NCBI GenBank assembly: GCA_049627345.1
Contig: JBMZXF010000002.1
Span: forward strand, 4,995-68,994
Length of the DNA: 64,000 nt
Origin: Poseidonia sp.
GTDB taxonomy: Archaea > Thermoplasmatota > Poseidoniia > Poseidoniales > Poseidoniaceae
Reading direction: 5' to 3'
Below the pieces are notes generated by a model. The model did not search any database and had not been told where the DNA came from. It worked only from the letters and a program-made list of their open reading frames with translations. Positions 9,939-63,529 of this stretch are shown here, piece by piece (positions within the stretch are counted from its first letter, which is position 1; every line of letters begins with the position of its first letter). A program made the translations under genes and the position numbers.

Positions 9939-9955
9939 GGAGAGGTTGGTGGCCG

Positions 9956-11194: not shown

Positions 11195-11204
11195 ACCGGC
11201 CAAG

Positions 11205-46447: not shown

Positions 46448-47224
46448 CTACTCCGAGGCCCAGGGGTCTTGACTGTCGCCCCAGGAAGCAGGCGCCTCTT
46501 CTGCGGCTGCTTCTTCGGCAGGGGCCTCCTCTTCCTGAGCAGGTTCTTCAACGGCCTCTTCGACAGGTGCCACTTCAGCGGGCGCTTCTTCAACGACCTC
46601 AACCGCTGCCGTGGCTTCTTCGGCTTCGGCCGAGGCGGCCTCTTCTTCCGCCATTTCTTCTGAGCGAGCCTGAACCATCTCTTCCACGCGCTCGGTGAAC
46701 GCACGGGACATGTGCTGCGACTTTCGCTCGGATTCGACAGCGCGCTCGATCATTTCGTAGCGTTCCTTGATGGCCTTGTTCAGGTCTTCGAAAATCTGCA
46801 TGTGGGCCACGTACCAGTCGTCTCGGGCCTTCATCTCGGTGACGGCCAATCGGAGGTCGTTGTCCAGTTCTTCAGCGATGCCGAAGACCTTGCCCAGACG
46901 GTCTTTTTCGCGGGAATACTTCTCTTCCATCTTCTCAAGTTCAGGTTCAAGGTGTTCAACTCGCTTGGAGTTCTTCGTGGCCTTCATCTCAAGTTCACGA
47001 ACACGCACATCTTTCTCGGCGATGATGGATTCGAGCGATTCCTTCTCGATTTCACGGTCGATGATCTCCTTCTCGAGCACCTCGATTTCGGCCTTGGCGT
47101 CAACGAGCTCTTTCTCCTGCGTCTCGTAGGCGGCGAAGAGTTTCTGCAAGCGGTCCGTTTCGGTGGCCAAGGCATCCTCGAGTTGCTTGATTTGGACCTC
47201 AGGCGTGATGGTTCCTTCCGTCAT
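46448..47224 (-). CDS. Coiled-coil protein with an E/A-rich acidic tail
   Basis: Long heptad-like region (QIKQLEDALATETDRLQKLFAAYETQEKELVDAKAEIEVLEKEIIDREIEKESLE...) and a C-terminal low-complexity EEAxAE tail. ATG at 47224 is preceded by GGGTGA; the track uses a GTG at 47266. Confidence 0.55.
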   Translation of the reverse strand: MTEGTITPEVQIKQLEDALATETDRLQKLFAAYETQEKELVDAKAEIEVLEKEIIDREIEKESLESIIAEKDVRVRELEMKATKNSKRVEHLEPELEKMEEKYSREKDRLGKVFGIAEELDNDLRLAVTEMKARDDWYVAHMQIFEDLNKAIKERYEMIERAVESERKSQHMSRAFTERVEEMVQARSEEMAEEEAASAEAEEATAAVEVVEEAPAEVAPVEEAVEEPAQEEEAPAEEAAAEEAPASWGDSQDPWASE

Positions 47225-47329
47225 GACTTCACCCGGAGGACAAGCCTCCACCTTCACCGAGTTCACTCCTCCCTATCAAGCCGACGCTCGGAAGGGCACC
47301 GAATCCGTACGCCTTGGCCGATGTTGTGC

Positions 47330-48292
47330 TCAGCGAAGCGCGTCGGTCGCCGCCACCAATTCACGGGCGATGCTGACCTCGCCCATCGAGTGCCCGGCGT
47401 CCGGCACCATCACCAGTCGGCTCTGCGGCATCGCCTGATGGAGTTCCCAAGCACTGCGCGGCGGACAGACCACGTCGTAGCGACCCTGCACGATGACCGT
47501 AGGAATGTGTTGAATCGCATCGACGTGGTTGAGAATGTAGGCCTCCTCAACGAAAATGGCGTTGATGAAGTAGTGGCACTCAATTCGAGCAAACGCCACG
47601 GCGAAATCAAGGTCTTCGGCCTTGTCGAGGTATTCTGGGTCGGGGAACAATCGACTGGTGGCCATCTCCCAGCGGGTCCACTCCTTGGCGGCCGCACGAC
47701 GAACCTCGACGTCATCGCTGGTCAGTCGGGCGTAGTAGGCTCGAATGAGGTCGGCTTGTTCGGCCTCGGGGATGTGGTCGCGGTAGGGTGCGAAGGCTTC
47801 GGGGAAGAGGTGGCTGGCACCGTCCTGATAGAACCAGTGAAGTTCGGACTTTCGGCACATGAAGATGCCACGGAGGACCAGACTTCGAACCCGTTCAGGA
47901 TGATGCTGCGCATAAATGAGGGACAGGGTGGAGCCCCACGAGCCACCGAACACGTGCCACGTCTCCACGCCCAAGTGTTCGCGAAGTGCTTCCAAATCAC
48001 TCACTGAGGCGTGCGTGTTGTTGTCTTCGAGTTCGGCGTACGGCGTAGATTGCCCGCAGCCTCGCTGGTCAAACTGCACGATGTTGAACGCTTGAGGGTC
48101 GAAGTATTGCCGGTAGGAGGGTTGACCTCCACCGCCTGGACCACCGTGAATGACCACGACGGGAATGCCATCGGGGTTTCCGCTTTGCTCCCATGCGATG
48201 GTGTGCATGTCCGAGACGGCGAGCATGCCGGTGGTGTGCGCCTCGATGGGCGGGTAGAGAACATCGGCCAGCGTCGTGGTGGTGTCAAGCAT
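47330..48292 (-). CDS. pip: Proline iminopeptidase (prolyl aminopeptidase, S33 family)
   Basis: VVIHGGPGGG, FDQRGCGQS, nucleophile elbow VFGGSWGSTLSL and the C-terminal His context PDAGHS. Confidence 0.9.
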   Translation of the reverse strand: MLDTTTTLADVLYPPIEAHTTGMLAVSDMHTIAWEQSGNPDGIPVVVIHGGPGGGGQPSYRQYFDPQAFNIVQFDQRGCGQSTPYAELEDNNTHASVSDLEALREHLGVETWHVFGGSWGSTLSLIYAQHHPERVRSLVLRGIFMCRKSELHWFYQDGASHLFPEAFAPYRDHIPEAEQADLIRAYYARLTSDDVEVRRAAAKEWTRWEMATSRLFPDPEYLDKAEDLDFAVAFARIECHYFINAIFVEEAYILNHVDAIQHIPTVIVQGRYDVVCPPRSAWELHQAMPQSRLVMVPDAGHSMGEVSIARELVAATDALR

Positions 48293-48333
48293 GAACCTTG
48301 GAAAGCGACACCGTGCATCTTCCTTTCGCCATG

Positions 48334-48993
48334 AACACCTTCATGAGACGCCGAGGGTGGCCACCTTGCATGAGCCTGCGCCCAGCGACGGATTTGTTCA
48401 GTGAATGGGCCGACGTTGGTCGGGATGAAGGCATGGAACGCGGCCACAGCGCCAGCGTGGACGTGATGCTCGACCGTCTGCTCAACGGGTGGAACCGTCC
48501 GTTCACGGCGATGGACATCGGATGTGGAAACGGTTGGGTCGTCCGTCGGCTCGCTGCCCACGATGCGTGCCTGCACGCCAGCGGCGTCGACGGTGCACCG
48601 TCGATGATCGCCAAGGCACGAGCCCTTGACCCGGAGGGCGACTACGTGGAAGCCATGCTCCCGGATTGGAAGCCAGCGGAACCCGTGGATTTGGTCCACA
48701 CGATGGAGTGCCTGTACTACCTCGAGGAACCGCTTGATTTCCTCATCACCATGCACGATGAGTGGATGAAACCCGGCGGCCGACTCGTCATCGGGGTCGA
48801 CCACTACACGGAAAACCCGTCAAGCCACGACTGGGGGTCCTCGTTGAACGTTCACATGGCGCTCTTGAGCATCGCTGAGTGGACCGCCGGACTTGAAGCG
48901 GCCGGCTTTACCGACATCAAGGCCGAGCAGGTTGGCGCCAAGGAAGGATGGGCCGGGACGCTGGTCCTCACGGCTCATCGTCGAGGCGACTGA
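48334..48993 (+). CDS. Class I SAM-dependent methyltransferase
   Basis: Motif I AMDIGCGNGWVVRRLA, then post-I and motif II/III-like segments (VDLVHTMECLYYL, GGRLVIGV). Start uncertain: TTG at 48298 in the track, or ATG at 48334, 48343 or 48370. The 3' end overlaps the convergent helicase gene by 26 nt. Confidence 0.75.
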   Translation, partial: NTFMRRRGWPPCMSLRPATDLFSEWADVGRDEGMERGHSASVDVMLDRLLNGWNRPFTAMDIGCGNGWVVRRLAAHDACLHASGVDGAPSMIAKARALDPEGDYVEAMLPDWKPAEPVDLVHTMECLYYLEEPLDFLITMHDEWMKPGGRLVIGVDHYTENPSSHDWGSSLNVHMALLSIAEWTAGLEAAGFTDIKAEQVGAKEGWAGTLVLTAHRRGD

Positions 48994-51900
48994 CGAAACC
49001 CAGTGGCTCGCCTTCAGGAGCGCATCGGCGCAAGTCACCCCGGTAAAATGCACATTGCTGGCAGGTGAGCGACCCGGAAGCGAGACGACCGGGCTCTTCG
49101 TGGTGAGCGTCGAGGTGGACCGAGGCTCGCCAGTCCAAATGCGCCAACATGTCCGCTTTGGCCTGTTCAAAGGCACCCTGTGAGAGTTCCACCATTCGGC
49201 CGTTGGCGCCCAACAGCAGGGCGGGTGGTAGGATACGGCGACGCTCGGCTACCGGTTTTCGTGCTTCAATGGCCTCCAGAGCCACCGAATACAGCGTGAG
49301 TTGCAAGCGGTGCTCGTGCAAGATGGCCGCTTCATCATCGCTTTGTGGAACGGGATTGGTTTCCTCGGGTCCCACGCGTTGGAGTGGATGACCTTTGGAT
49401 GGGTCCTCAGCGTTGAAGGCCCCCAAACAACCTCGCGTTTTGAGGTCCACCACCTTCAGCGCCCCCTGCCCGTCGTCGTCAACCAGCGCCAACACCAAAT
49501 CAGCCCGACCGCTGAAATCCATGTTGACGTGCTCGACCACCGATGGGGCGTGCGACTCGCTTTCCACCGATTCACCCGCCGAGGTCGCCCGTTGGAGGCG
49601 TTCCCGATGGAAGAACGGCAGTTCGGTTCTGACCGCTTCAACCGACCACCCGTGCAAGGTCGCTCCTTGGACCCACTGACCGAGCAGTCCACGGTCGATG
49701 AGCGAGCTCAGGTGCATCAGCCGCTCCCGCCACGATGCTTCGGGCGAGGAGGACGCTTGTTCAGCACCAAATCCAAATTCGTTCATGACGCGCCCCACGG
49801 TCGTATCCGAGGCCAAGTCCTCGTCAGCCTCGTGCAGCCACGAGGCGTCCAACGAAGGCGTCTGCTCCGCCTTCGCACGAGGGTTTCGCAGTCCGATTTC
49901 CAAGACACGGTGCATCATCAAACCGAACGTGGTGGGCTCGGGCCATGCCCGCTGTGGAGGAGCCGCTGTCGACGCCTGCGGGAGAAGGAAGGGTTCGGTC
50001 GACCATCCTCGTACGTGTTCCAACCAGTACCGTCGCGGGCAGGCAAAGGTGGCGTCGAGGTGATGAGCGGCGCCCTTGATGTTCTCTTGAAGGCGAAGCG
50101 GGGGCGCCGTTGAACGGCCGGTCGCTTCCATGGTCTCGAGGTGCGAGGCCAGCGCCCGTGCACGTTGCTGCGGCGAAGGGGGGTCCACGGGGTCAAAGCA
50201 CAACGGGTGGTGATACAGCCTCAGACCGCTCAATCCGTGCTCGCCGAGTTGCGATCCGTTCAGCAGCGCGCTCGGATTGAGCGCTGTTTGGTGCTGTTGT
50301 GAAGAAAACAGGGGCAATGCAGGCGCCTCAAGTTCAGCCGCTGACACCCATGGGGCATCTCCACCAGCGGACCACGTGGCTCTTCGTAGCCCCTCGATGA
50401 ACATGCGACCCATCGTTCGAGGGTCGGGAGCAAACCGAACCGACAGCGTTCCGTTCTCTTCATCGAAGGTCGAACGGTTGCCCGGGCTGCCCGTGATGAT
50501 GAGCCGGTCTTTCACCCGCGTCAACGCGACGTAGAATTTCCGACGGAGTTCCGCCTTGTCCTGCGCTTTGTTCATCTCGGCAGCAAAAGCCCACAGCCCG
50601 TCCTCTGGACGGTCCTTGGCCCGCCAAGGTTGAATGCGTCCGGCCAGCACCTGTGGGGTGACGAGAATGTTGTCCTGAACGGACATGCTGGCATCGGCCT
50701 TGCCGGCTGCAAACAACCCAGAAACCACAACCACCGGGGCTTGCAGCCCTTTTGAGCCATGAATCGTCATGATTTGAACGGCTGTGGAATCCGGCTGCGT
50801 GATGGCTTGGGGGCCTTGCCGTCCCAAGGCCCGAACTTCGACCATTCGACGGTACATAGCGGCCGCATCATGACCCGTGTCGTTACCGATGGATTGGACG
50901 ATCCCCACCCAGGCTTCCGCAAATTGACGCTGGGCGTCGTCGGGGTAGGCCACAAGCAAATCGGAGTGGTCAAGCACGGCGTCAAACACGTCGTACAGGG
51001 CGCCCCAGCTCATGAGTTGCTGAAGGTGGGCCAAAAGCGATCGAACGGCTTCGGATGGTGCATGATCGATCAGGTGTGGCAGCACTTCAGCACCGTCCTC
51101 GAGCGAGACCATGGCCTCGTGGACTTGGCGTTCCGAGAGCCCGACCACGGCTGAACGAGCGAGTTCGACCCCCGCTTTTCGCATGGACGGTCGGGCCATC
51201 AGCGCCAACATCGCCATCAGCGGTTGAACCACCGGTTGCATGGACAGCAGCCCTTGTCGGTCGGCCATGACGGGAATGTTGCGTGCGCGAAGGCGGTCGA
51301 CCAAATCGGGCAGATGTTTGCGTGAGTTGATGAGGATCATGATGTCCTGTGGCCGAACCGGTGGACCTGCCTCGGTGACCTCGGTCCACGAAGCGGCTTC
51401 GCTGTCCCACACCCTCGTGGACGACCCGTTGAGCAAGGCGTGAAGGCGGTCGGCGAGGAGTTCGTGTTCGAGGTGAACCTGCGATGCGTTCGGGTCGGCA
51501 AAGGTGTTGACGGCCACGTCCAAGTCAAGGGAAACCTCGGCGATGGTGCCCGGAATCGGGAGAAGCCATTCCAACACGCCGGGATGTTCGGTGGCACGGG
51601 CAGGGCGAAGCCGTTGGGCTTCTGCGTGCCAGTCCCCGGGAAGGTCGTGGTAGCGAGGGTCGAAGACCTCGTCGAACATGTCGTTCATGGTCTCCATCAA
51701 ATCGTGCCGCGTTCGGTGGTTGGAGGTCAGGTCAACGTGTCCTTCAGCACGGCGCAACAAGCGCTGACCGACGATGGCAGGTTGACCTGCCTGGTCTTCT
51801 TCGTCAAACCGAACAAAGGTGTGAGGGGCCGACACCTCGCCGCTGTGTTCGTTGGAAAACGACCCGGTTTCACCTCCACCGCCAACGGGGCGGGGATCGC

Positions 51901-53902
51901 GGCCACAGCCAGCCTCGCGCAGATGGTCGAGGCGAGCCTCGCCCTCTTCATCGATGTTGAACTGACGAATGGCTTCCACCGCCCGCCGCATCACGGAAAC
52001 CTCGGCCTGACGGAAACGGTAGATGCTCTGTTTCATGTCACCAACAATGCAGACGGTGGGGTCCCACGCACCCAACGGCCCAGCAGGGTCGTCGGGATGA
52101 CGGCGACGGCGGCCCCAAAGCCGGGCCAGCAAACGATAGTGGGAGGGGTTGGTGTCTTGGTATTCGTCAATGATGAAGGCACGGTACTGTCGGCGAAGTT
52201 CGCCCAAAATGGCCACACGGCGTTGGAGGTCTTCCAGCAATTTGGGTCGGTCGTTGAGCAGGGTGAGGGCGCGGGCGATGTGAGCGTCGGTCCACGGCTC
52301 ATCGCCAAGCCCGTCCAAGGCGTCGATGACGGCCGGCGGGTAGCGGTGGCGACAGATGTCAGGGCATCGGGCCAGAAGCAAGTCGGCAGCAAAGCGCTGC
52401 ATGTCGTCAAAATCGTGCATGTTGTCGAGGGATTTTCTTCGAGCGAGAATTTGATTGCACGCCGTGTGAATGACCTGGAGGTCGCTGAGCACCTGAACTT
52501 GGAGGTCGGCGGAAACGTAGGTTCCACGATTGCCCGCTTCACTGGGCAGCGGGTCGACAAGGGGGTCCAGTCGAAGCGGGCTGTCGAGCGGCATGCCGTC
52601 AAAGCCATCCATCGGGTTGAGCAAAAAGGCAGAGCGAGCCAGCAAGCGAATGAGGGTCCCGTTGGCCGAGTTCAGCAGCGAGCGCAAGCCGGGAAGATGC
52701 GCTTTTCCGGCCTCGTAGAGGGCGTTCTTTTCGTCCTTTGAAAGCCCGGTGGCTCCCGTTTTTGAGGTCATGCCGGAGGGCCAGCCGTTGCCGTTGGGAA
52801 GGGCATCCCTTGGAAAAAACGTGCAGGATGGTTTGACCAAACCCGAGGCCGTGGCAATGCCAAGCAAGGCCTTCCAAACCCACGAAAGTTGCTCGCCAGC
52901 CTCCGTTGGGAGCGGTTGGGACGTGACCCGGACGAGGTGGTTGAACCGGGTCAGGGACGTCGTGGCCTCGGCCGGCGCAATGCAGTTGGCGTGGTAGGGC
53001 AGGAAGGTCTGCACCCAATCGCCCAACCTTCGTTGAAATTCCACAATGAACTCGGGGAGCAGCTCCACCACCGGTTCGGCGATGGTGTTGAGCAGCACGT
53101 CCACGGGAGCAGGTCCCCGGCCGTTCCAGGCCAGTCCCATGTCCTCCGCTCGCTGAATCATGGAACGGTGGGACTGTTCAACGAACAGCGAACGGTCGAG
53201 CAGCCCACCGAGGACGATCTCCGCTTGGTCCTGCCCGCCCAGTCGGTTGACGAGACGATTGCGAGCGTCCAAGAAGGCTTGATGATGATTCAAAACGCCC
53301 GCTTCTCGAGCATCGTCAACGGAACGAATGCGCCAAACAGCGTGGAGCGTGTCCTGCACCATCAGTGGTTTTCGCTCCTCCGAGACTTGTTGGTTGGAGG
53401 GGTAGAGGGCCACCAGGTCAACGTAAGGTTGCACCAGTTGGCTGAGGAAGGCATCGATGGTGGAGATAGGGGCTTCATCCAAGCCGGAGAGGAGCATTTC
53501 CACGTCGCCGTCGTTACGCAACCTCGGGTCAAACACACCGTCGCGATCTTCGGGCGAGGGCGGGTGTGCCCGAGCCTGAGCGAGTCGATGGCGGATACGT
53601 GCTTTGAGTTCAGCCGCTGACTTACGAGTGAAGGTGATGGCCACCACTTCTGAGGGGAGCAAGCCGGGCCATTCCTGCAGGGCCGTGCGTTCCCGTTTGG
53701 GTGCACGAAGCGCACCGTGTCCGGACAGCGGTGTACGTGGCCCCATGGGAGTCACGTGCGTGGCTCGTTGGTCGGCTGCAAACAGGTGCTGAACATAGCG
53801 CTCGGCCATGACCGTCGTCTTCCCCGTGCCTGCGCCTGCATCGAGCGCAATGTGCCGGTCCAAATCCAACCCAAGCCGCTGGCTGTTGTTGAATTGGATC
53901 AT
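48968..53902 (-). CDS. addA: AddA-like SF1A (UvrD-family) helicase fused to a RecB-family PD-(D/E)XK nuclease, 1644 aa
   Basis: Helicase motifs in order: LDAGAGTGKTT, ITFTRKSAAELK, TIDAFL, IIDEYQDTN, VGDMKQSIYRFRQA, SNHRT, IMTIHGSKGLQ, YVALTRVKDRLIITG. C-terminal nuclease: ACPRRYW, GRADLV, VVDLKT, QLTLY, CQQCAFYRGDLRRC. Start taken as the ATG at 53902, which overlaps the upstream stop (TGATG); the 18 extra residues in the track are rejected. Confidence 0.8.
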   Translation of the reverse strand: MIQFNNSQRLGLDLDRHIALDAGAGTGKTTVMAERYVQHLFAADQRATHVTPMGPRTPLSGHGALRAPKRERTALQEWPGLLPSEVVAITFTRKSAAELKARIRHRLAQARAHPPSPEDRDGVFDPRLRNDGDVEMLLSGLDEAPISTIDAFLSQLVQPYVDLVALYPSNQQVSEERKPLMVQDTLHAVWRIRSVDDAREAGVLNHHQAFLDARNRLVNRLGGQDQAEIVLGGLLDRSLFVEQSHRSMIQRAEDMGLAWNGRGPAPVDVLLNTIAEPVVELLPEFIVEFQRRLGDWVQTFLPYHANCIAPAEATTSLTRFNHLVRVTSQPLPTEAGEQLSWVWKALLGIATASGLVKPSCTFFPRDALPNGNGWPSGMTSKTGATGLSKDEKNALYEAGKAHLPGLRSLLNSANGTLIRLLARSAFLLNPMDGFDGMPLDSPLRLDPLVDPLPSEAGNRGTYVSADLQVQVLSDLQVIHTACNQILARRKSLDNMHDFDDMQRFAADLLLARCPDICRHRYPPAVIDALDGLGDEPWTDAHIARALTLLNDRPKLLEDLQRRVAILGELRRQYRAFIIDEYQDTNPSHYRLLARLWGRRRRHPDDPAGPLGAWDPTVCIVGDMKQSIYRFRQAEVSVMRRAVEAIRQFNIDEEGEARLDHLREAGCGRDPRPVGGGGETGSFSNEHSGEVSAPHTFVRFDEEDQAGQPAIVGQRLLRRAEGHVDLTSNHRTRHDLMETMNDMFDEVFDPRYHDLPGDWHAEAQRLRPARATEHPGVLEWLLPIPGTIAEVSLDLDVAVNTFADPNASQVHLEHELLADRLHALLNGSSTRVWDSEAASWTEVTEAGPPVRPQDIMILINSRKHLPDLVDRLRARNIPVMADRQGLLSMQPVVQPLMAMLALMARPSMRKAGVELARSAVVGLSERQVHEAMVSLEDGAEVLPHLIDHAPSEAVRSLLAHLQQLMSWGALYDVFDAVLDHSDLLVAYPDDAQRQFAEAWVGIVQSIGNDTGHDAAAMYRRMVEVRALGRQGPQAITQPDSTAVQIMTIHGSKGLQAPVVVVSGLFAAGKADASMSVQDNILVTPQVLAGRIQPWRAKDRPEDGLWAFAAEMNKAQDKAELRRKFYVALTRVKDRLIITGSPGNRSTFDEENGTLSVRFAPDPRTMGRMFIEGLRRATWSAGGDAPWVSAAELEAPALPLFSSQQHQTALNPSALLNGSQLGEHGLSGLRLYHHPLCFDPVDPPSPQQRARALASHLETMEATGRSTAPPLRLQENIKGAAHHLDATFACPRRYWLEHVRGWSTEPFLLPQASTAAPPQRAWPEPTTFGLMMHRVLEIGLRNPRAKAEQTPSLDASWLHEADEDLASDTTVGRVMNEFGFGAEQASSSPEASWRERLMHLSSLIDRGLLGQWVQGATLHGWSVEAVRTELPFFHRERLQRATSAGESVESESHAPSVVEHVNMDFSGRADLVLALVDDDGQGALKVVDLKTRGCLGAFNAEDPSKGHPLQRVGPEETNPVPQSDDEAAILHEHRLQLTLYSVALEAIEARKPVAERRRILPPALLLGANGRMVELSQGAFEQAKADMLAHLDWRASVHLDAHHEEPGRLASGSLTCQQCAFYRGDLRRCAPEGEPLGFVSRLDDEP

Positions 53903-56900
53903 CAGAAATCGCCTCCGCTGTACTGAGAGACATCGCAAGAGTGAGCCACGGCACAATAACTGCAGTGCGCGCCCGGCGTGGGGTGAACGTGCCCTTGGTG
54001 AGCGGTGTCGACCGCCCGTTGAGCGACGGTCAACCGTTCAGCCATCCACCGTCGGAAGGGGGTCGTGGTCGTGCCGCTCGGCGTGGACGCAGGGAAGTGT
54101 TGAGGGAACACTTGGGTGAGTTCGCCAATGGACAGATGGTCGCTCAAGGCGGCGAGGTCGCTGTCGAGCTCAACGTAGTGGGTGGTGGATTCGCCCACTT
54201 CGCTGGCGCCGACACCGATCACGCGGTCGTTGGGATGGAGAAGTTCCCAAGCACGGGCGTACAGGGCCAATTGGAGGTCTTCAAACAAGCAGCGCATGTG
54301 CCGCAAGCCAGCGGAAGCGGCGTCCGGGCCCCGAACGGTCTTCAAATCCCGAATGACGACCAAGCGTTGCGCCGGTCGCGGTGCATCGTGAAGCGGGAAC
54401 GGTGTCTCGTGGTCATCCTCCCCCAGCACGCCTTGCTCGACGAGCACGGAACGGAGGGCATCGGGAAGGACCACAACGTCCACGCGGTCGGCATAACCAA
54501 ACAGACGGAAACCCGTTGCTTCATCGCCCCCGGCGGTGTCGAGCATGACGGAACGTTCGCTCTCAAGCCTTGGGGACCATTCCATCGCCACGGGAGCGGC
54601 GTGCTCCAACGAAAGATCGGCGCTCAACAATCGGGCAAGACGACCCCGGGGGGGCAGTTCGATTTCACCGTCTTGGTGAGCCTGCCACGACTCGGGCGTG
54701 GCATCGATGAGGTCCTTGGTACGATGAACGGAAACGGCGTTGTGGCGACCGAGCCAGTGCACATCCCGCTGGAGGAAATCAAGCACAGCGTCCCATCCCG
54801 CACGACCTTCGCCCATGGGGCCGAGGTGGAGCGGTTGAGGCTCAGCCGTGGTTTCGCCTCCCAAGGGCACACCGTGGCCTTGCAAAATCGCTGCTTCCGT
54901 CTCGTGCACCACTTGACCACGGATTCGGATGTCGATGTCTTCGGTGCTCATCTCTTCATCGTCGTCAGCGCGGAGGTGTTGCTTCAGCCAGGCCTGGCGT
55001 GGACACTTGAGCCAAGCCTCCAAGCGGCTGGGCGACCACACCTCGCGTTCGAGGGGCAAGTCAAGCACGCCAAAGCGTTGGGAAAGTCCAGGTTCTGAAG
55101 GGACGTACGGCGGAAGCGGGCGCGGGTCGACGCTGACGGACACGGATTTCTCCTCACGATGACCCAAATGCGGGAACTCGGTGGCAGCGACGCCGTTCAC
55201 CTTGAGCGAGGCACGCGTTGGGCGGAGCGTTACGGCGTCCACGCTGGCCAGATGGGCTCGGTTTGACCATGCAAAACTGGTGTGTTCGCCGAGGTGTTTG
55301 GCCAGCGGTTGCCGCCGCCTCCGGTCGGCTTGAACCTCGCCTTCGTAAGCGTGAACGAGCGCCACGGCGTGATTGGGCATGACGTTGGGTTCGAGGTGCG
55401 AGCGGACGTCGAGACCGAGTTGCTGACGCCGGTCCCGACCACTGAAACCAAAGCAAACCGTCCGCAAGCCGGACGCCGTGTTGGCGGTGGCGTGCATCAC
55501 CGGCGTCAGCCAACTGCCGTGACCGTCTTCACGCACCGACCATCGGAACGGACGAGGCTCACCTTCCCCCTCATAGGTCGAGGAAGGGAGAAACGAGGGC
55601 GGGGTACGCATGGCATCCCAGGCCCCGGACCGTTGGACATCCGCCAGCCATTCAGCCAACGGCGCACTCGGACCTCCACCCTCTTCAGGCGAGGAGTCAA
55701 AGACGACCACCGTGGGAGCTGCGTTCAGCAAATGGCGAAGATGATGGCGGCCACGGCGGACCAACCGGTCGGTTTGAAACAACCCAAGTTCGAGTTGAGC
55801 CGAAGCGTCCAGCCAAGGCGTGATCGAAGAGCGCATCGACCATGAATCAACGTCCAAGGCGACGAGCAGCAGCACGTCGGCGGTGCACCCGAGTGCATCG
55901 TCAGGCGTGACCACGTTGATGCGGTCGGTTCGCGAGGTTTGGTGCGTGAGTTCTGTTGAAGACCCAATGTGGTCGAGAAGGTCCACGAACGCAGCACCAT
56001 GGTCCTCGAACGGAAGACCGTGGTCGTGAAGTTGATGCTTGATGGCGTTCAAGGCTTCCACGAGCGCCTGGAGGGCCCCCAGGCCTGCATCGAAGGGTGC
56101 TCGCCGGTGTTCAAATCGGGCCACGTCAATCGAGCTGAGTAGCCACGAGAGCCACGCCATGCCGGAGGCAGGAAGGTCGGGCATCGGCAGTTCGACACCG
56201 CTGGTGCACCCCACCACCGGACGTCGCAGCAGATGACGGTCTTCGGGGGAGAGAAGCGGTGCCCAGGCACGAAGCAAACAAGCCAGCCACCACTGCGTCT
56301 GTTCGAGCGCTCTGGCCTTGTCTTCAGGACGTCGCTCAGCGAAGGAAGGCTCAGCCCCAGCAAGAACACCAAGCCAGCGGGCGATGGCTCCCGGGCCGCC
56401 GAGGACATGGAACTGCCGTGCGATATCGTCCAGCACCGCAGCGTCAGGCTGAGGGCGCCACGTTCCCTCGCTGGGATGGTTCAATTCAGGAAACAGGTCA
56501 TCGTTGAAGGGGACCACGGAGGAGAAGAACACCCCGCGCAGCGATTCGAGTGACCAGGCGCTCATGCCCTGTGCCAACCGTGCGGCTCTCACCACGGCGT
56601 GATGAGTGGGCTGTTGGTTCATGGCCGCCGAGCCTGGGTGCCAACGAAGGCCGATGGAGGCCAACCCGTTGGACCAAGCCGTGGCTCGGTCCCGAACGCC
56701 TGCGTCGACCACCAAGATGTGGCCGTCGTGGTGCGCACGGTACGCCTGAATCATGGTCAAGGCTGCCTGCATGCCATGGCCTCGTTCGTCAAGGGTCACC
56801 CTTGTCAACCGGGTCGCTCGCTCACGCCCCACATCGGTTTGCCAGGTGGTGGCGTCGCCGGTCCACGCCTCGTGCGGAGGTACCCAGTCAGGCAATTTTT

Positions 56901-57639
56901 CCGTGGTGCACGGTGGCTCATCCACCAGGTAGGCGCCGTGGTAACCAAGTCGAAACGAGCCGGGGTTGAGGAGCTGATGTACGGGTGCGAACGTGGACAC
57001 GGCGGTGAGAAGGTCCTGTTCGACTTCGTTGAAGTCCGGGGCGGCGTCGAGAACGATGAGGCCAGCCACTTCGCTGAGATGAAACGGCGTATCTGCAGCC
57101 GTCTGCAGCGCCTCGAGAACATGGCGTGATACCAAAGCGGGGAGCATGGCACCCGCCGTGGCTTCGGTCTCAAGGCACAAGCGATGGAACACAGCGGCGC
57201 CAGGATCCCCTTCCCAAGCAAAAGGGCGGCGCAGTTGGAGCAGTTCGCCATGCAGTTGCTGAAGTCGACGGGTTTTGGTAAGCGTCCAACTGCCGACACC
57301 CGGCGTGTAGAGGAACGGGAGTTCAGCGTTCTCAGCGGCCGCAGCACACCGTGCGTGAAGGGCCATGAAGGTGCTTGATTCGTCATCCATCAGCACCGGC
57401 AGGCGAAGATCCACGTGGAGAAGGCGAACCAAACGGTTCAGGGTGAGGTGGTACTGCGGTGTAACCACCACGCCAGCCTCGTTCAATCGCTCGAGGGTGC
57501 GTTGACGGTGCAGTTCCGTGGGATGGAGAAGCATGAACGGAGCGTGTTCAGCGGGGTGGCAGAGCGCCTCGAACAGCCACGGTGGAAGCCCCTCGCCTGC
57601 AGGGACGTGTTCCGATGTGATGCTCGGTGTTCGCTCCAT
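53902..57639 (-). CDS. addB: AddB-like partner subunit: helicase-like region without a recognisable P-loop, plus a C-terminal PD-(D/E)XK nuclease with a Cys cluster, 1245 aa
   Basis: C-terminal motifs WSPSRLEAWLKCPRQAWL, IRGQVVHE, GYADRVDVV, VVIRDLKT, LQLALYARAW and CSYCAVAHSC (C-x2-C-x5-C). This is the AddB/Cas4-type nuclease plus 4Fe-4S arrangement. No GxxGxGK(T/S) found in the N-terminal ~850 aa. It lies immediately upstream of, and is coupled to, the AddA-like gene. Confidence 0.6.
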   Translation of the reverse strand: MERTPSITSEHVPAGEGLPPWLFEALCHPAEHAPFMLLHPTELHRQRTLERLNEAGVVVTPQYHLTLNRLVRLLHVDLRLPVLMDDESSTFMALHARCAAAAENAELPFLYTPGVGSWTLTKTRRLQQLHGELLQLRRPFAWEGDPGAAVFHRLCLETEATAGAMLPALVSRHVLEALQTAADTPFHLSEVAGLIVLDAAPDFNEVEQDLLTAVSTFAPVHQLLNPGSFRLGYHGAYLVDEPPCTTEKLPDWVPPHEAWTGDATTWQTDVGRERATRLTRVTLDERGHGMQAALTMIQAYRAHHDGHILVVDAGVRDRATAWSNGLASIGLRWHPGSAAMNQQPTHHAVVRAARLAQGMSAWSLESLRGVFFSSVVPFNDDLFPELNHPSEGTWRPQPDAAVLDDIARQFHVLGGPGAIARWLGVLAGAEPSFAERRPEDKARALEQTQWWLACLLRAWAPLLSPEDRHLLRRPVVGCTSGVELPMPDLPASGMAWLSWLLSSIDVARFEHRRAPFDAGLGALQALVEALNAIKHQLHDHGLPFEDHGAAFVDLLDHIGSSTELTHQTSRTDRINVVTPDDALGCTADVLLLVALDVDSWSMRSSITPWLDASAQLELGLFQTDRLVRRGRHHLRHLLNAAPTVVVFDSSPEEGGGPSAPLAEWLADVQRSGAWDAMRTPPSFLPSSTYEGEGEPRPFRWSVREDGHGSWLTPVMHATANTASGLRTVCFGFSGRDRRQQLGLDVRSHLEPNVMPNHAVALVHAYEGEVQADRRRRQPLAKHLGEHTSFAWSNRAHLASVDAVTLRPTRASLKVNGVAATEFPHLGHREEKSVSVSVDPRPLPPYVPSEPGLSQRFGVLDLPLEREVWSPSRLEAWLKCPRQAWLKQHLRADDDEEMSTEDIDIRIRGQVVHETEAAILQGHGVPLGGETTAEPQPLHLGPMGEGRAGWDAVLDFLQRDVHWLGRHNAVSVHRTKDLIDATPESWQAHQDGEIELPPRGRLARLLSADLSLEHAAPVAMEWSPRLESERSVMLDTAGGDEATGFRLFGYADRVDVVVLPDALRSVLVEQGVLGEDDHETPFPLHDAPRPAQRLVVIRDLKTVRGPDAASAGLRHMRCLFEDLQLALYARAWELLHPNDRVIGVGASEVGESTTHYVELDSDLAALSDHLSIGELTQVFPQHFPASTPSGTTTTPFRRWMAERLTVAQRAVDTAHQGHVHPTPGAHCSYCAVAHSCDVSQYSGGDF

Positions 57640-57964
57640 GAAAACCGCCTGTTTTGGAGAACGGCACCGAGGCTATTTCAACATGCGTGGCGATGGAGAT
57701 GGGCAAGGAAGGCACGCTCGGCCAGGTAGGTGGGATTCCATCCTGCCGACCCTCGCAACGCGCCCTTCAAATAGGGCGGTTCCTTTCTGAAAAGTTGCAT
57801 GGGTGGGCCGGAGAATCGAAGCGTGATTCGGCGGGCATATTTGGGTTAGTTTCATATAGTGTGTGCCTCAATAAGAATATGTCTTGTTTCCCCTCATGTG
57901 TTGGAAACCTCGTTTCCAGCCCGAGAGGAGAGATTAAGAAGCAGAGATGCTGGAAATTGAATCC

Positions 57965-57971
57965 TTTATAT
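57965..57971 (+). promoter_or_regulatory. TATA box TTTATAT upstream of the TFB-like gene
   Basis: Context gaaattgaatccTTTATATgggg. A 35-nt gap to the ATG at 58007, with GGAG in the predicted short leader. Confidence 0.45.
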
Positions 57972-58006
57972 GGGGTGGCGGGACATTTACCTTGGAGTTG
58001 AGAAAA

Positions 58007-59164
58007 ATGATGACGAAATGCGACGAATGCAGCGGAAACCTGACGATTGATTTGACCCGTGGAGAGGGCATCTGCGATGTGTGCTCCTTGGTGCACCCCA
58101 TCCTTCACGACGACGCCGACACCAACAGCGGCAGCTCGCTTGGCGAAGGCCGCCACAACGAGGCCGTCAACATGGAAGCGGGCCACGGCGGTGCCAAAAT
58201 GGGGGGCAAGATGAACCCCTTCGGCGACAAGTTTGACGGTCGAGGCAACCGCCTGACGGCCAAGCAACGCCGCCTCGCCGCCCGAATCGGCAAGTTGGAC
58301 CGAAGTTCCCAGCGTGACACCGACCCGATGTTCGCCCAACTCATGGCCACGCTGCGCAACATGTTCGGCGCTGACATGGCCAAAGCGGTTGAACCGCTGG
58401 CCCGTGCTGCTGCCCGTAAGCTCACTCGCACCCAAGAAGCCACGCGCAAGACCTTGTCGCCGGGCGAACGCCGCCGCCTCAAGTGCCCAAAGACGGCCAT
58501 CTGCCGCGCAGGTGGCAAGGAGCACCCCGAACTCCGTGGCAAGACTGACAAAGACAAGTTGCAGATCATGGCCTTGGCCATCGCCTCCATCGCAGCTCGC
58601 TGGTTCCGCACCGTGCGAGTCAACGAGAAGCAACTGATGGACACCTACGGCATCACGGCCAAACAGCTGAGGAACGCCAAGAAGACCATCATGCAACACT
58701 ACCAGGAGCGCGTGCGCCAAGGTTGGGCCGCGCCACCACAACAGCTCAGTGCTGCTGCTGCTCGTGAAGACGAGTTGGACAAGGTCACTGAGAACCTGAG
58801 CGACGGTCTGTCGAAGCGCTTCGACGACGATGACCTCGGTGCCATCATGGACGCCTTCTTCACCGTCATGTCGAACCTCGGTGAGCCCAGCGTGGACGCT
58901 CCAACGGCCAACGTCCCCATCTCGATGGTGGCTGGCTGCGTCATGTACAACCTCCTGCGCCAACTCGGCCTCCAAAACGGCAACCTCAGCACCGTGGCCA
59001 AAGCCGTGCAGCGCTCAGGCGCCGGTATCAAGAGCCGCCTTGACGAGATGCGTGAACGCTACGAGAACGGGGATTTCCCCGAAGGAGTCGAACTCTTCTC
59101 TGAAACGGTGGACGAAGCCGTTGAGAGCGACGGCAACGCTGACGAGGAAGCCGCCGACGAGTGA
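58007..59164 (+). CDS. TFIIB-type zinc-ribbon protein, divergent TFB-like transcription factor
   Basis: From the ATG at 58007: MMTKCDECSGNLTIDLTRGEGICDVCSLV, a C-x2-C-x14-C-x2-C ribbon at 58019-58084. A Gly-rich linker follows, then helical regions loosely resembling the B-linker and cyclin folds (NRLTAKQRRLAARIGKLDR; KLQIMALAIASIAARWFRTVRVNEKQLMDTYGITAKQLRNAKKTIMQHY), and an acidic tail. TTTATAT at 57965-57971 and GGAG 11 nt upstream of the ATG support this start. Confidence 0.5.
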   Translation: MMTKCDECSGNLTIDLTRGEGICDVCSLVHPILHDDADTNSGSSLGEGRHNEAVNMEAGHGGAKMGGKMNPFGDKFDGRGNRLTAKQRRLAARIGKLDRSSQRDTDPMFAQLMATLRNMFGADMAKAVEPLARAAARKLTRTQEATRKTLSPGERRRLKCPKTAICRAGGKEHPELRGKTDKDKLQIMALAIASIAARWFRTVRVNEKQLMDTYGITAKQLRNAKKTIMQHYQERVRQGWAAPPQQLSAAAAREDELDKVTENLSDGLSKRFDDDDLGAIMDAFFTVMSNLGEPSVDAPTANVPISMVAGCVMYNLLRQLGLQNGNLSTVAKAVQRSGAGIKSRLDEMRERYENGDFPEGVELFSETVDEAVESDGNADEEAADE

Positions 59165-59209: not shown

Positions 59210-60112
59210 ATGCGTTCACCCCTCGTCCTGTGCCTTGCGCTTTCGTTTCTCCTCGGAACCATGAGTCCGGCTGCAGCCCTTCCAGCCAGCGAAGTCAACA
59301 ACGGCATGCTGTTTGGTGGGCAGTGGACGCCGGCCAATACAACGGCCGTGCAGACGTCCAATTTCAGCGATCTCAAAGCCGTCACCGAAGTCTACACCGC
59401 CACCTGGTGCGACAACTGCGTGGATGTCGAGCACGCGCTTGAAGACGTCAAGGCTGAAGGCCATCTCATCCAATACCACTTCCATTCCACCCTCAGCGAC
59501 CCGTTTGGTGTGGCCGAACTTGAACAGCGATGGCGAGACAAGTACGAACCCAACTCCCCGCCTGGCGTGGTGTTCAACGGGACCATGAAGAAAGTCGGCA
59601 GCGTGGCCGACGATGGCACGCTGCAGAACGAGTTCACCAACCTTGCCAAGCAAGACTTGGGACTTGGCCAAGGGACCACATCCTTTTCCTGGACGCCCGG
59701 GGTTTGCGAGGACGTGTTCGCCTGCGGCACCATGACGTGGGACCTTGCCATCGGTGAGGAGCACCTCGACAACGCAAGCCTCACCGTCTACGCGTACATC
59801 GTGGAGGCCGCCGCCGACTACGAAGAGGGCACCAACGGCCTCGGAACCTACCCTCACATCGTACGCGACATGATCGACGTCGGGAACGAATCCCAAGGAT
59901 CGATGATGGTGTCGCTACCAACCCCGCACGACGGCGACGATTTGGAGATTCACCTGCTCTACGAAATCATGCCCAACCCACCCGAAGCGATGGAAGAAGA
60001 ACCTGAACCTACTGAGCCCAGTGAAGACACACCGGCCTTGTCCGCCGTGTCCACGATGATGGTCGTCGGTTTGGCACTGGCGTTCACTCAACGAATTCGC
60101 CGAGACCGTTGA
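59210..60112 (+). CDS. Exported thioredoxin-fold protein (WCDNC active site) with a C-terminal membrane anchor
   Basis: Signal peptide MRSPLVLCLALSFLLGTMSPAAA, motif TATWCDNCVDVE (W-C-x-x-C at 59405-59419), and C-terminal hydrophobic segment ALSAVSTMMVVGLALAF followed by RIRRDR. Confidence 0.65.
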   Translation: MRSPLVLCLALSFLLGTMSPAAALPASEVNNGMLFGGQWTPANTTAVQTSNFSDLKAVTEVYTATWCDNCVDVEHALEDVKAEGHLIQYHFHSTLSDPFGVAELEQRWRDKYEPNSPPGVVFNGTMKKVGSVADDGTLQNEFTNLAKQDLGLGQGTTSFSWTPGVCEDVFACGTMTWDLAIGEEHLDNASLTVYAYIVEAAADYEEGTNGLGTYPHIVRDMIDVGNESQGSMMVSLPTPHDGDDLEIHLLYEIMPNPPEAMEEEPEPTEPSEDTPALSAVSTMMVVGLALAFTQRIRRDR

Positions 60113-62450
60113 ATTCACGGTCAGCCGGGTCGTCGAACTCAACGACGCGTTGCGTGTCCCGATGGTCGAGGTGAAGCTGCCATCGGAAGTGAGGTACTTC
60201 CCGGGGCGGAGCCACCACGTCGACGTAATTCCACCAGCGTGGTGGAGCCCCACGTACCCGCTGGCGGTCCTGCATGTCGCGAAGCAAGTCCGTCAGCTGC
60301 AAACGGGCGTTGGGCCGTGGGTGATCTCGGCGAATGAGGATGGCGTGCGTCTGATCTTCTTCGTCCTTGACATAACCAAGCATTTTCGCAGCCCGTGTGA
60401 AGAAGCTGCGTTCCAGTTCCGACCGTACCGTTACCTGGAGGTCGGTATGTTGGAGTGCAAGGGGTTCGCCATCACGAATCGGGAGTCGGAAGTGAGCCCC
60501 CAACGGCTGGTGAACCAGCACTTCCCATACCCGTGCAAAGACCTCGCACCAGCGGCGTTCACCGTCCCTGACATCGCCTTCCTCGTGAAGGTCATCTCCA
60601 CGTCGATGCGGCATCAAGTGATGGTAGCGTCGGTGGAAGAATCCCTCTTGGACGCGCCCGAAGTAGTCGCCAAAGCCCTGAACCTCCGTTCGTCCTGGCA
60701 CATAGGGCGGCACGGTTTCCCGCCACTCAGCCACGGCTTCCTCGAGCGGGAATCGCCCTTCGCGGTCAAACACGGTGTGGAAGCGTGCAGCCCAGCGTTC
60801 AGAGAAGCGCGGGCGTCGACGACCATGGTGTCGATTGCGGAGGAAGAGGTCGTGAAGCCCACCACCCGGTCGTGGTTCCAACTCGTCTACCGTGTCGGGG
60901 CGAAACCAACGGAGCTGGTGCAGGAAGAATCGAGGGGGATTGACGGCTTGAACGGCATCGTTGGAAAGGCGTTCAATCCACGCAGCAGGGATGTTGTGTC
61001 GAGGGAAGCCGAACGGCGGATAATGAAACAGCAACTCCTCGAGGCTTTGGATCTCACCCGAGGCTTTGATGTCGTTGACCATGGAGAGGATGACGCTTCC
61101 CATCGTGTCGCCCAACGGCAGGGTGTTGGCGAATTGACCGCTGTGGATGCAGATGGGCCGTTTGACGTTGGGCGTGATGTCGGTGACGTGTTGAATGGTG
61201 TACGGCGCGCCGTGTTGACCATGTTCAACCGCCACCTCATACACATGACCGAATTGACCGATGATCAAGGCACGAGCTCGCTCGAGGAAGACCTTGGTTT
61301 CCAAACCGTTCATGATGCTGTGACAAAACTCCAACGAACGAACCAGCGGCGCTGACGGGAGGTTGCGTTCAATGTAGCCCACCGACCAGTTGTGCTGCAA
61401 GCCAAGCAAGAGTTTTCCTGCCTCGGAGTTCAGTGGGGAGAGCACCAACGATGACAGGAGCGCCCAAAGCGCTGGCTCGTTGGGCACCCGAATCAAGCGG
61501 AGAGACCCGGTGGCCGTGCGTACCCGAAATCGGAGTGCCTTCGGGTTGAGGTCCATCGCCCATTTTTGCGTTTCAGCCTGTTCGTGGGCCGGTTCAAGTT
61601 CCCGCCAAGCCTGCATCCAAGGCGTGTTGTAGGCGTGGAACAAGCCCGGTGGGTGGTGATCGAGCGCCTTTTGGAACATGCCTTCCATGTTGGGAGGCTG
61701 CCGGTCAAACATTCGGGATTGGATGTCGTGGGACCACGCCATCATCGGCACATATTCACGGGCTTCCATGTTCAGAGTACGGTCGATCTTCAATCGAGTC
61801 GACAACCACGTCAACATCGCAGCCAAGGGACGATACGAAGGGCGCAATTCACGGCGACCACGGTGGTGGATGTACTGGACCATCCGCGAAGGGTGGCGAA
61901 GTTCTGGATTGACGGAGGTCGCACACACCAGCAGGGCTGGAATGTCCCACCCCTTTCGCTTGGACGCGTTTTCCATCAACGAAAACACGACGAACAGACT
62001 CAGCCCGTGAAGGTCGCACCCGTTGAGGTTCCACACGCCGTCGAGGTAACGCAACACCGAGCCGTCGTGGAACCCGATGCCTTCCCTGAGCATGGCTTCT
62101 TGGCGTTGCGTGAGGTGGTCGCCCCGCAGGACCGCTTGCGTGAGTTCCTCAAAGGCACCCCAGGATTCCGGCGGTTTGGTGATGGGGTCGTCGTCGTTGT
62201 CCAAACGGGCCCATTGCACGTGGTGGAGGTCGCTTGTGTTCGCCAGCAGGGCGTTCCACTTTCGTGATGAGGTGCCATTTGGCCCACCAAACAAGGCCAT
62301 GGCCCGTTCGTGTTCCTCTGGATGCAACGGTGCGTTCCAGCCCTGCTGGGGCTGGAAGTCGATCATCGATTGACACCAATCGCAGACGTGGTCGGTGTCA
62401 GGGGAGGCTGCGTTGTGAACACACAGCGTGTCGCGTACGCTCTTGGTCAT
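60084..62450 (-). CDS. Large uncharacterised protein (788 aa), basic and His/Trp/Arg-rich
   Basis: Uninterrupted minus-strand ORF with native GC3-rich codon usage; the + strand ORFs 60150..61355 and 61566..62267 are its shadows. N-terminal Cys/His cluster LCVHNAASPDTDHVCDWC (about 62373-62423). I recognise no domain. Start taken as the ATG at 62450; the track uses a TTG at 62486 that overlaps the ltaE stop. Confidence 0.6.
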   Translation of the reverse strand: MTKSVRDTLCVHNAASPDTDHVCDWCQSMIDFQPQQGWNAPLHPEEHERAMALFGGPNGTSSRKWNALLANTSDLHHVQWARLDNDDDPITKPPESWGAFEELTQAVLRGDHLTQRQEAMLREGIGFHDGSVLRYLDGVWNLNGCDLHGLSLFVVFSLMENASKRKGWDIPALLVCATSVNPELRHPSRMVQYIHHRGRRELRPSYRPLAAMLTWLSTRLKIDRTLNMEAREYVPMMAWSHDIQSRMFDRQPPNMEGMFQKALDHHPPGLFHAYNTPWMQAWRELEPAHEQAETQKWAMDLNPKALRFRVRTATGSLRLIRVPNEPALWALLSSLVLSPLNSEAGKLLLGLQHNWSVGYIERNLPSAPLVRSLEFCHSIMNGLETKVFLERARALIIGQFGHVYEVAVEHGQHGAPYTIQHVTDITPNVKRPICIHSGQFANTLPLGDTMGSVILSMVNDIKASGEIQSLEELLFHYPPFGFPRHNIPAAWIERLSNDAVQAVNPPRFFLHQLRWFRPDTVDELEPRPGGGLHDLFLRNRHHGRRRPRFSERWAARFHTVFDREGRFPLEEAVAEWRETVPPYVPGRTEVQGFGDYFGRVQEGFFHRRYHHLMPHRRGDDLHEEGDVRDGERRWCEVFARVWEVLVHQPLGAHFRLPIRDGEPLALQHTDLQVTVRSELERSFFTRAAKMLGYVKDEEDQTHAILIRRDHPRPNARLQLTDLLRDMQDRQRVRGAPPRWWNYVDVVAPPREVPHFRWQLHLDHRDTQRVVEFDDPADREFNGLGEFVE

Positions 62451-62482
62451 GAGGGAGATGTTCCCCGACTCTTTTTGAAGGC

Positions 62483-63529
62483 TCAACCGAACAGCCGCTG
62501 CGAAATGTCGGTGAAGCGGTCCACGTCCTCATCGGTGATGTGGAGATGCACCACCACACGAATTCGGTTGTCGCTCAGGTCGAACATGTCAACGCCGTTG
62601 GCAGCGTACTGCTCGACCACCTCAGCCGCGGGGCGGTTCGTGGTGGCATAGACCATGTTGGTCTGGACGGTCGCGAGGTCGACGGTGAATTCGGGGAGTT
62701 CGTTGAGCATGACAGCAATGCGCTGAGCACGCTCGTGGTCCTCTTGCAGGCGGTCAACGTGATGGTCAAGGGCATGCAGGCAAGCCGATGCGAGCAGACC
62801 CGCTTGCCGCCAGCCACCGCCGAACAATTTGCGCCACCGATGAGCCTTGGCGATGAACGCCGACGAGCCCACCAGGACCGAGCCAACCGGCGCACCGAGC
62901 CCTTTGGAGAAGCAAATGGAGACCGAATCGTAGTGCTGACACATGCGTGCGACATCAACGCCCGTGGCGATGGCGGCGTTGAAAATTCGAGCCCCGTCGA
63001 TGTGCGTGGCGCACCCCAAGGAAGCAGCAACCTTGGCGATGTCATCCAGCGTGGTTTGGTCGTAGCAGGAGCCACCGCCGAGGTTGGACGTGTTTTCAAC
63101 GCACACCAGCGAACCGTTGGGGTAGTGGCTGCCCGAACCTTCCGCCTTTCGAACGGCAGAACGGACCTGTTCGGGCGTCATCAGACCGCCCTCGCCGTCG
63201 ACCAGAGCGATGGAAGCGCCGCAGAGCGCAGCATAACCGCCGCCTTCGTAGCGGTAAATGTGAGCGGTTTTGTCGCACACGATCTCGTCGCCCGGCACGG
63301 TGTGGGTTCGGAGGGCAATGGCGTTTGACATCGTTCCGGAGGCCACGAACAATGCGGCTTCTTTACCAAACATGGCGGCCACGCGATCTTGAAGTTCAAT
63401 CACGGTCGGGTCGTCTCCGAGCACGTCGTCACCCACCGATGCTTCGTGCATGGCTTGGCGCATGACGGTCGTGGGTTGCGTGACCGTGTCAGAACGGAAG
63501 TCAATTCGGGAGGAGGGGTGTTCCCGCAT
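62483..63529 (-). CDS. ltaE: Low-specificity L-threonine aldolase (PLP-dependent)
   Basis: [19 protein letters not shown]...[22 protein letters not shown], and the PLP-lysine context [12 protein letters not shown]. Confidence 0.9.

Follow-up and report, generated by a model that had tools for sequence, protein, structure and literature searches.

Introduction

DNA end resection in archaea is attributed to Mre11-Rad50-HerA-NurA, whereas RecBCD and AddAB are described as bacterial enzymes (a 2020 review and a 2026 paper; PMC7690668, PMC12977600). According to a later paper that relays it, Cromie suggested in 2009 that addAB genes had moved "even into the archaea". In this work we analyzed two adjoining genes, addB-like and addA-like, in a 64,000-nt stretch of DNA (the window) from Poseidonia sp. 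of the archaeal order Poseidoniales (assembly GCA_049627345.1, contig JBMZXF010000002.1, positions 4,995 to 68,994 of the forward strand); all positions below are those of the window, and the two products are called B and A. An original prediction, made from the sequence without database searches, had read the pair as a bacterial-type AddB/AddA-like helicase-nuclease in an archaeal gene neighborhood. Our analysis makes it likely that the two genes encode an AddAB-type heterodimeric helicase-nuclease that would process double-stranded DNA ends in Poseidoniales. In the literature searched we found no paper describing an AddAB-like pair in Poseidoniales or marine group II (MGII) archaea, and a paper on horizontal gene transfer in planktonic archaea, together with its supplements, makes no mention of these genes.

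The closest described system is AddAB of Bacillus subtilis (3U44/3U4Q/4CEH-J). Its addB gene precedes addA, its A subunit joins a single superfamily 1A (SF1A) motor to a RecB nuclease, and its B subunit joins an inactivated helicase-like domain to an iron-staple nuclease with the cysteine pattern Cys...CxxCx5C; the Poseidoniales pair has the same gene order and, as predicted from its proteins, the same layout of both subunits. Mycobacterial AdnAB (6PPJ/6PPR/7SJR/9NP6) is likewise built of two UvrD-like plus RecB-nuclease subunits and is a good structural match; its iron-sulfur (Fe-S) cluster lies in the nuclease of the non-motor subunit, at the DNA fork. In Escherichia coli RecBCD, RecB is the motor-nuclease, RecC an inactivated helicase that serves as scanner, and the third subunit, RecD, an SF1B helicase. 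Finally, UvrD-Cas4-like fusions, found in bacteria and mesophilic archaea (Hudaiberdiev et al. 2017; PMC5704561), resemble A in combining a UvrD-type SF1 helicase with a PF12705 nuclease and Cas4-like cysteines.

The gene pair and its junction

The addB-like gene (53902..57639, minus strand, from the open reading frame (ORF) listing) starts with ATG and encodes 1245 aa. The addA-like gene (48968..53902, minus strand) encodes 1644 aa when read from the ATG at 53902. Its ORF extends over 48968..53956 and opens at a TTG. Most full-length A homologues are 1630-1660 aa long. The junction sequence is GATTTCTGATGATCC (GATTTC-TGA-TG-ATC). The TGATG at 53904-53900 contains the B stop codon TGA (53904-53902) and the A start codon ATG (53902-53900), with one base common to the two codons, and thus the stop/start overlap of two minus-strand ORFs in the original prediction was confirmed. 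A GGAGG (53916-53912) is located 9 nt upstream of the A start codon, and together with the overlap it forms an operon junction at 53900..53916 of the minus strand.

The same arrangement was observed in related loci. The B and A genes overlapped by 1 or 4 nt in 53 of 69 loci, and GGAGG preceded the A start in 40 of 58. Wherever upstream DNA was available, both genes were present and the addB-like gene came first; this order was also kept in three deeper relatives. Full-length conservation in hundreds of sequence clusters indicates that both ORFs are genuine genes, as opposed to ORFs that arise by chance in GC-rich DNA. The 3' ends of the A gene and of a convergent methyltransferase gene (48298-48993, plus strand) overlap by 26 nt (48968-48993), an arrangement that is kept across the order.

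The A-like protein

Pfam searches, the check proposed with the original prediction, detected UvrD-helicase (E 2e-32), AAA_19, UvrD_C (E 9e-13) and PDDEXK_1 (E 6e-8) in the 1644-aa protein. The SF1A and nuclease motifs quoted in that prediction were all present, and most were invariant across homologues, of which A has more than 500 at 44-96% identity. The helicase region comprises residues 1-1145 (50468..53902, minus strand); it is collinear with AddA and its motifs are invariant in 24 diverse homologues. These include Walker A, LDAGAGTGKTT (53813-53845, minus strand), in which GAGTGKT is the invariant part, motif II, DEYQDTN (52148-52168, minus strand), and motif III, VGDMKQSIYRFRQAE (52001-52045, minus strand). 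The alignment with AddA is collinear across motifs I, Ia, II/III and IV-VI, including "KQSIYRFR", and within motif III the GDMKQSIYRFRQAE of A, again invariant in the 24 homologues, corresponds to GDVKQSIYRFRLAE of AddA. The A protein is larger than B. subtilis AddA (1644 vs. 1232 aa), in line with what had been suspected. The ~400 extra residues are distributed over four regions, of which one follows Walker A, one lies in the 1B/arm region, one follows motif III and one surrounds the nuclease.

The nuclease domain (48971..50065, minus strand) carries D1468, D1486-x-K1488 and Q1534-x3-Y1538, and these catalytic residues are found in 78-79 of 79 loci. An AlphaFold2 (AF2) model of the C-terminal 494 residues (predicted local distance difference test (pLDDT) score 83) matches the AddA nuclease, and it matches the Fe-S nucleases AdnA, ACE1/Cas4 and Exo5 about as well. 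Judged by these motifs, A is a protein with a complete predicted SF1A UvrD/AddA-type motor and a RecB-family nuclease.

The family assignment of A as AddA-like was borne out by both sequence and structure databases. Among the NCBIfam models addA_Gpos ranked first (147 bits), followed by recB (128), addA_alphas (103) and an epsilon-type RecB-like helicase (82), then pcrA and uvrD, all with scores well under the curated cut-offs. When a 24-member A profile was compared with Protein Data Bank (PDB) sequences, the top match was B. subtilis AddA (3u44_A, E 6e-32) and the next were AdnB (2e-18), UvrD1, PcrA and RecB. The best score against AddA also sets A apart from the UvrD-Cas4 fusions. The latter stand alone or in variable, often defense-linked contexts (PMC5704561), whereas A is always paired and occupies a fixed chromosomal locus.

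The B-like protein

In the 1245-aa protein Pfam detected PDDEXK_1 alone (E 7e-14). This nuclease domain (53905..55047, minus strand) contains D1051, D1098-x-K1100 and Q1123-x3-Y1127 together with C879 (codon 55003-55005), the first cysteine of the putative cluster; all of these residues are conserved in 67 of 67 loci. The segment CSYCAVAHSC (53935..53964, minus strand) corresponds to C1226-x2-C1229-x5-C1235, a predicted Fe-S ligand triad of the AddB/Cas4 type, present in 64 of the 67. The cysteine spacing is the same as that of the 4Fe-4S ligands of B. subtilis AddB, C801...C1121-x2-C1124-x5-C1130 (PMC3321194).

The N-terminal ~860 residues (55060..57639, minus strand) appear to form a helicase-like fold without a P-loop and are a candidate single-stranded DNA (ssDNA)-scanning or scaffold domain. 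The pattern G-x4-GK[ST] was absent from the first 150 residues of B in all 69 related loci, in agreement with the original prediction, and neither Pfam nor the P-loop scan found catalytic helicase motifs in B. For residues 51-1245 an AF2 model was obtained with pLDDT 79 and a predicted template modeling (pTM) score of 0.55. In a Foldseek search of the PDB with this model, five AddB chains came out on top (E ~3e-15, ~1330 alignment columns), followed by AdnA, AdnB, UvrD/PcrA/Rep (~660-690 columns) and RecC. The UvrD/PcrA/Rep matches over this length point to a helicase fold in the N-terminal part of the model.

Homologues of B form 48 full-length clusters, all from Poseidoniales, which public records list either as "hypothetical protein" or as "PD-(D/E)XK nuclease family protein". 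The N-terminal domain has strongly conserved, lineage-specific motifs (PGSFRLGxHGAY, HVLGGPGA and EETQWW) that are without counterpart in AddB. Such strong conservation of motifs unlike those of AddB speaks for a lineage-specific function that has been retained; as a speculative example, the domain might recognize a regulatory sequence. A HMMER search with a profile of the N-terminal 860 residues against 1.84 billion representative proteins gave 249 matches, all to the same family. Two distant members of the B family had sub-threshold matches to addB_alphas (E 0.002-0.009).

Cysteines in the A nuclease

We also noticed four cysteines in the A nuclease that were not remarked on in the first reading: C1288 (50039-50041) and C1614-x2-C1617-x9-C1627 (49022-49063). 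The full quartet was found in 71 of 79 loci and also in deeper relatives (L081-L084). C1288 shares its "CPR..W" context with C879 of B, and in an hhalign comparison of the A and B nuclease domains the first cysteine motif alone was aligned. The quartet is absent from the AddA-like proteins of haloarchaea (see below) and from B. subtilis AddA. An Fe-S cluster has been described solely in the non-motor subunit of B. subtilis AddAB, where it is assigned to the AddB C-terminal domain (PMC3321194), and in that of AdnAB (PMC13000450); the extra nuclease cysteines of Poseidoniales A set it apart from these enzymes. A second, putative Fe-S staple in the A nuclease is therefore plausible as a peculiarity of this family. 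The enzyme would then have one predicted cluster in B, to which A would probably add another.

Related pairs on haloarchaeal plasmids

A tblastn search of plasmids identified haloarchaeal genes for a "PD-(D/E)XK nuclease family protein" with an overlapping "UvrD-helicase domain-containing protein". An AddAB-like pair with such generic annotation is present in 46 haloarchaeal plasmid records, among them those of Natrinema pJ7-1 and Halalkalicoccus jeotgali plasmid 1; examples by accession (from L085-L090) are NC_018225.1 (74111-80393) and NC_014298.1 (292669-299605). The A protein of pJ7-1 scored 364 bits on addA_alphas, and its B protein scored 46-58 bits on addB_alphas, addB_Gpos and rexB. 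A six-member profile of haloarchaeal B matched B. subtilis AddB with E 3e-16. The haloarchaeal B proteins lack a P-loop and possess the CxxCx5C staple.

The haloarchaeal and Poseidoniales pairs thus have in common an archaeal host, overlapping genes in the B-then-A order, the missing P-loop of B, and full-length homology of their B profiles. The haloarchaeal pairs are, on the other hand, much closer to bacterial AddAB and plasmid-borne, and are often found beside defense or Mre11-Rad50-like genes; the pair of Halapricum pHSR-Est01 adjoins Rad50/Mre11-like genes. Their proteins are shorter (A, 1211-1278 aa; B, ~1060-1115 aa) than those of Poseidoniales (1644 and 1245 aa), and their A proteins show ~25% identity to the A of the window and lack the C-terminal cysteine cluster. 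An hhalign comparison of Poseidoniales B with the haloarchaeal B profile gave a match with a probability of 99.1% (E 1.6e-18) over 931 columns, aligning residues 32-1229 with residues 30-1034. These results show that archaea have AddAB-like pairs more widely, on Poseidoniales chromosomes and haloarchaeal plasmids, than current annotation suggests. The peculiarity claimed for the window has to be narrowed to that extent: such pairs are not unique to its lineage, and the 46 plasmid records carry a more canonical version.

Assignment to AddAB

B is tied to AddB by two independent lines that support the assignment, the predicted fold and the transitive profile homology by way of the haloarchaeal proteins. 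Several observations weigh against the assignment of the pair to AddAB. The A protein falls far below the equivalog cut-offs of the AddA models (TIGR02785 and TIGR02784), with 147.5 bits vs. 707.65 and 103 vs. 860.75; AddA is still the best-ranked NCBIfam family for A. B had no match to the NCBIfam AddB models (TIGR02773 addB_Gpos, TIGR02786 addB_alphas and TIGR02774 rexB). B profiles of 23 and 36 members gave nothing significant against PDB sequences, with Cas4 at E 0.04-0.14. The Foldseek template modeling (TM) scores of B are low (~0.34); a flexible protein of four domains would be expected to score low, but the values are still weak. In addition, the cysteine quartet of A is partly or wholly lost in two Poseidoniales sub-lineages that keep the catalytic residues of the nuclease (A C-termini of loci L044, L060, L067, L073, L077 and L078). 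These sub-lineages suggest that the putative second cluster, if real, is dispensable in some lineages. The AddB-like identity put forward in the original prediction therefore stands on predicted fold and transitive homology, and did not come out of direct sequence searches; the TIGRFAM check favored AddA for A by rank and failed to retrieve AddB for B.

The Walker A motif of AddB (PMC3321194) is absent from Poseidoniales B in all 69 loci. Since the haloarchaeal AddB-like proteins are also without it, we regard the missing P-loop as a subtype difference that does not exclude membership. The same feature speaks against an AdnAB-like enzyme with two motors and two nucleases. AdnA and AdnB rank with the best structural matches, and the B profile has a non-significant but collinear three-motif match to AdnA; AdnA, however, retains ATP-binding motifs and binds AMPPNP (PMC13000450), whereas B is without Walker A in every locus examined, and AddB ranked above AdnA in Foldseek. 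We consider an AdnAB-like enzyme very unlikely. A RecBCD-like enzyme was rejected as well. RecB and RecC are among the sequence and structure matches and rank below AddA and AddB; RecBCD has one nuclease domain and AddAB two (PMC3321194), and B keeps an active-looking nuclease and its Fe-S motif. No recD-like gene was found in the conserved 20-kb neighborhood.

The two proteins could also act independently, A as a stand-alone UvrD-nuclease repair enzyme and B as a nuclease of its own whose N-terminal domain is structural, the genes being co-transcribed and the products forming no complex. Outside its nuclease motifs B does not directly resemble AddB in sequence, and A has its own Cas4-like cysteine motif, as do the stand-alone UvrD-Cas4 fusions. 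Such independence is improbable, since throughout the order and in deeper relatives the two genes strictly co-occur, keep their order and have a stop/start overlap. Over its full length B also resembles AddB and AdnA in fold and profile, and these two proteins work solely as partners of motor subunits. B. subtilis AddAB is the top structural match for B and the top sequence and structure match for A. We concluded that A and B belong, as remote members, to the AddA and AddB superfamilies and that the pair is a divergent native AddAB variant.

Distribution and genomic context

Synteny was surveyed in the best 80 of 250 species-representative genomes that carry the A gene. Essentially all of these 80 are Poseidoniales, including the MG-II chromosome CM001443, and the sample includes contigs of 0.4-2 Mb. 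A and B homologues are labeled Candidatus Poseidoniales archaeon, Poseidoniaceae or Thalassarchaeaceae, and the closest genome records are metagenome-assembled genomes (MAGs) of Poseidonia/Poseidoniales at 94-98% identity; together with the archaeal RadA and the FtsZ encoded in the window, these records place it in a marine group II archaeon. The A gene is single-copy throughout the order. In databases the A and B genes go under generic names, namely "UvrD-helicase domain-containing protein", "exoDNAse V beta subunit", "hypothetical protein" and "PD-(D/E)XK nuclease family protein". The novelty expected of the pair is accordingly a partial one: it had not been recognized as AddAB, and its orthologues are already deposited order-wide under these names.

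Where flanking DNA was available, the gene order was nearly always a threonine-aldolase-like lyase, two unknown genes, a Zn-ribbon protein, B, A, a methyltransferase, proline iminopeptidase, a coiled-coil protein and phosphatidylserine decarboxylase. Three far more divergent pairs on archaeal contigs (one of 3.0 Mb) are again in the B-then-A order and have partly the same neighbors, with MCM, GatE-like and PTH2 genes nearby. In the window GC content is even (0.585-0.634), and the synonymous codon usage of the two genes correlates with that of the remaining genes in it (r = 0.93 and 0.97). A search of 2.9 million viral contigs yielded no family member.

One alternative explanation is that a fragment of bacterial DNA was mis-assembled or mis-binned into an archaeal contig, and 2 of the 80 related records are titled as bacterial MAGs, one as "uncultured Rhodobiaceae bacterium" and the other as "Salipiger bermudensis". 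The recurrence of one gene order, with archaeal neighbors, in 80 independent assemblies, and codon usage and GC that match the window, make this explanation barely credible, and the synteny survey refuted chimerism or contamination. The native status claimed for the genes was upheld by the same data. The two bacterial-titled records (L072, CALDQY010000213.1; L079, CAXQWT010000040.1) contain the Poseidoniales B-A locus with its archaeal neighbors; on account of this full Poseidoniales neighborhood they are probably mis-binned themselves.

A second explanation is that the pair acts mainly as a module for defense or degradation of foreign DNA, like helicase-nucleases of the UvrD-Cas4 type, and not as a recombination enzyme. 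The neighbors of some haloarchaeal plasmid pairs, of the BREX or restriction-modification type, fit such a role: BrxA at one pair, a DNA methyltransferase with alkaline phosphatase and DUF499 at another, and a TaqI-like protein. UvrD-Cas4 fusions have been linked to defense systems (PMC5704561), and RecBCD and AddAB also degrade foreign linear DNA. PADLOC gave weak matches of A to GajB (UvrD-type) and none for B; the A matches span the generic UvrD core alone, and assignment to a defense-system class was rejected. The Poseidoniales locus lies among the same housekeeping-type neighbors in 80 of 80 loci, with no defense gene found nearby, and the gene is single-copy, order-wide and without a member on viral contigs. 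We therefore consider a mainly defensive role unlikely, and the undescribed defense module that had been offered as an alternative does not suit the fixed housekeeping-type context of this locus.

Taken together, synteny, codon usage, GC and the absence from viral contigs exclude a chimera, recent transfer and a defense island. They indicate an old acquisition that was fixed before Poseidoniales diversified and is now a vertical, order-wide core locus.

Other genes of the window

The window also encodes FtsZ and an archaeal RadA (6011-7045) of the Rad51 family with an N-terminal helix-hairpin-helix (HhH) domain. The latter and a proline-iminopeptidase-like hydrolase (47330-48292) were named as neighbors in the original prediction, and both were found as stated. 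A third neighbor named there, a "TFB-like" gene (57947-59164, plus strand), could not be verified under that label: its product has an N-terminal CxxC...CxxC and is Zn-ribbon-like, and it had no TFIIB or other significant Pfam match even at E<=1. This gene is divergent from the B gene and is kept in nearly all Poseidoniales loci at 23-98% identity.

Further observations concern genes of the window without recognizable domains. The gene at 46448-47266 (minus strand) encodes a 272-aa acidic coiled-coil protein with no recognizable domain, 63-98% identical across the order. Other domain-less conserved neighbors are located at 60084-62486 (minus strand, 800 aa), 59210-60112 (plus strand, 300 aa) and 11567-15022 (minus strand, 1151 aa). 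The ORF at 27879-36218 (plus strand) encodes a giant protein of 2779 aa with native codon usage and no Pfam match at E<=1e-5. The 610-aa ORF at 9371-11203 (minus strand) has atypical codon usage (GC content at third codon positions (GC3) 0.55, relative synonymous codon usage (RSCU) correlation 0.68) and no Pfam match, and it overlaps with a 412-aa ORF at 9956-11194 (plus strand).

Proposed mechanism and significance

By analogy with B. subtilis AddAB (PMC3321194), from which the mechanism was inferred, the A-B complex, presumed to be a heterodimer, would bind a duplex DNA end. A would be the only motor, moving 3'->5' along the 3'-ended strand and feeding it to its own C-terminal RecB-type nuclease, which would cut that strand. 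B would serve as a catalytically dead, helicase-like scaffold. The 5'-ended strand, once displaced, would be cut by the iron-staple nuclease of B, and the helicase-like domain of B may search the 3' strand for a Chi-like sequence with a regulatory role. The reaction would leave a 3' single-stranded tail for archaeal RadA; the partner recombinase of bacterial AddAB is RecA, and here it would be RadA. We concluded that Poseidoniales probably prepare broken ends for RadA with a bacterial-type enzyme. A more far-reaching proposal, which we regard as possible and quite tentative, is that a "double iron-staple" AddAB is the main long-range resection machine of Poseidoniales and some deeper relatives, feeding RadA in a hybrid bacterial/archaeal pathway, with B reading a Chi-like sequence and the whole replacing HerA-NurA.

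The most abundant planktonic archaeal order carries a predicted AddAB-type machine as a vertically inherited core locus. If active, it would be a concrete candidate for the processing of DNA breaks in uncultured, sunlight-exposed archaea of the surface ocean. It would also pair a bacterial-type resection enzyme with archaeal RadA, which raises the question of RadA loading and of a Chi-like sequence. An active enzyme would further be a naturally occurring AddAB variant in which both nucleases bear putative cysteine staples, and as such useful for studying the role of the Fe-S cluster.

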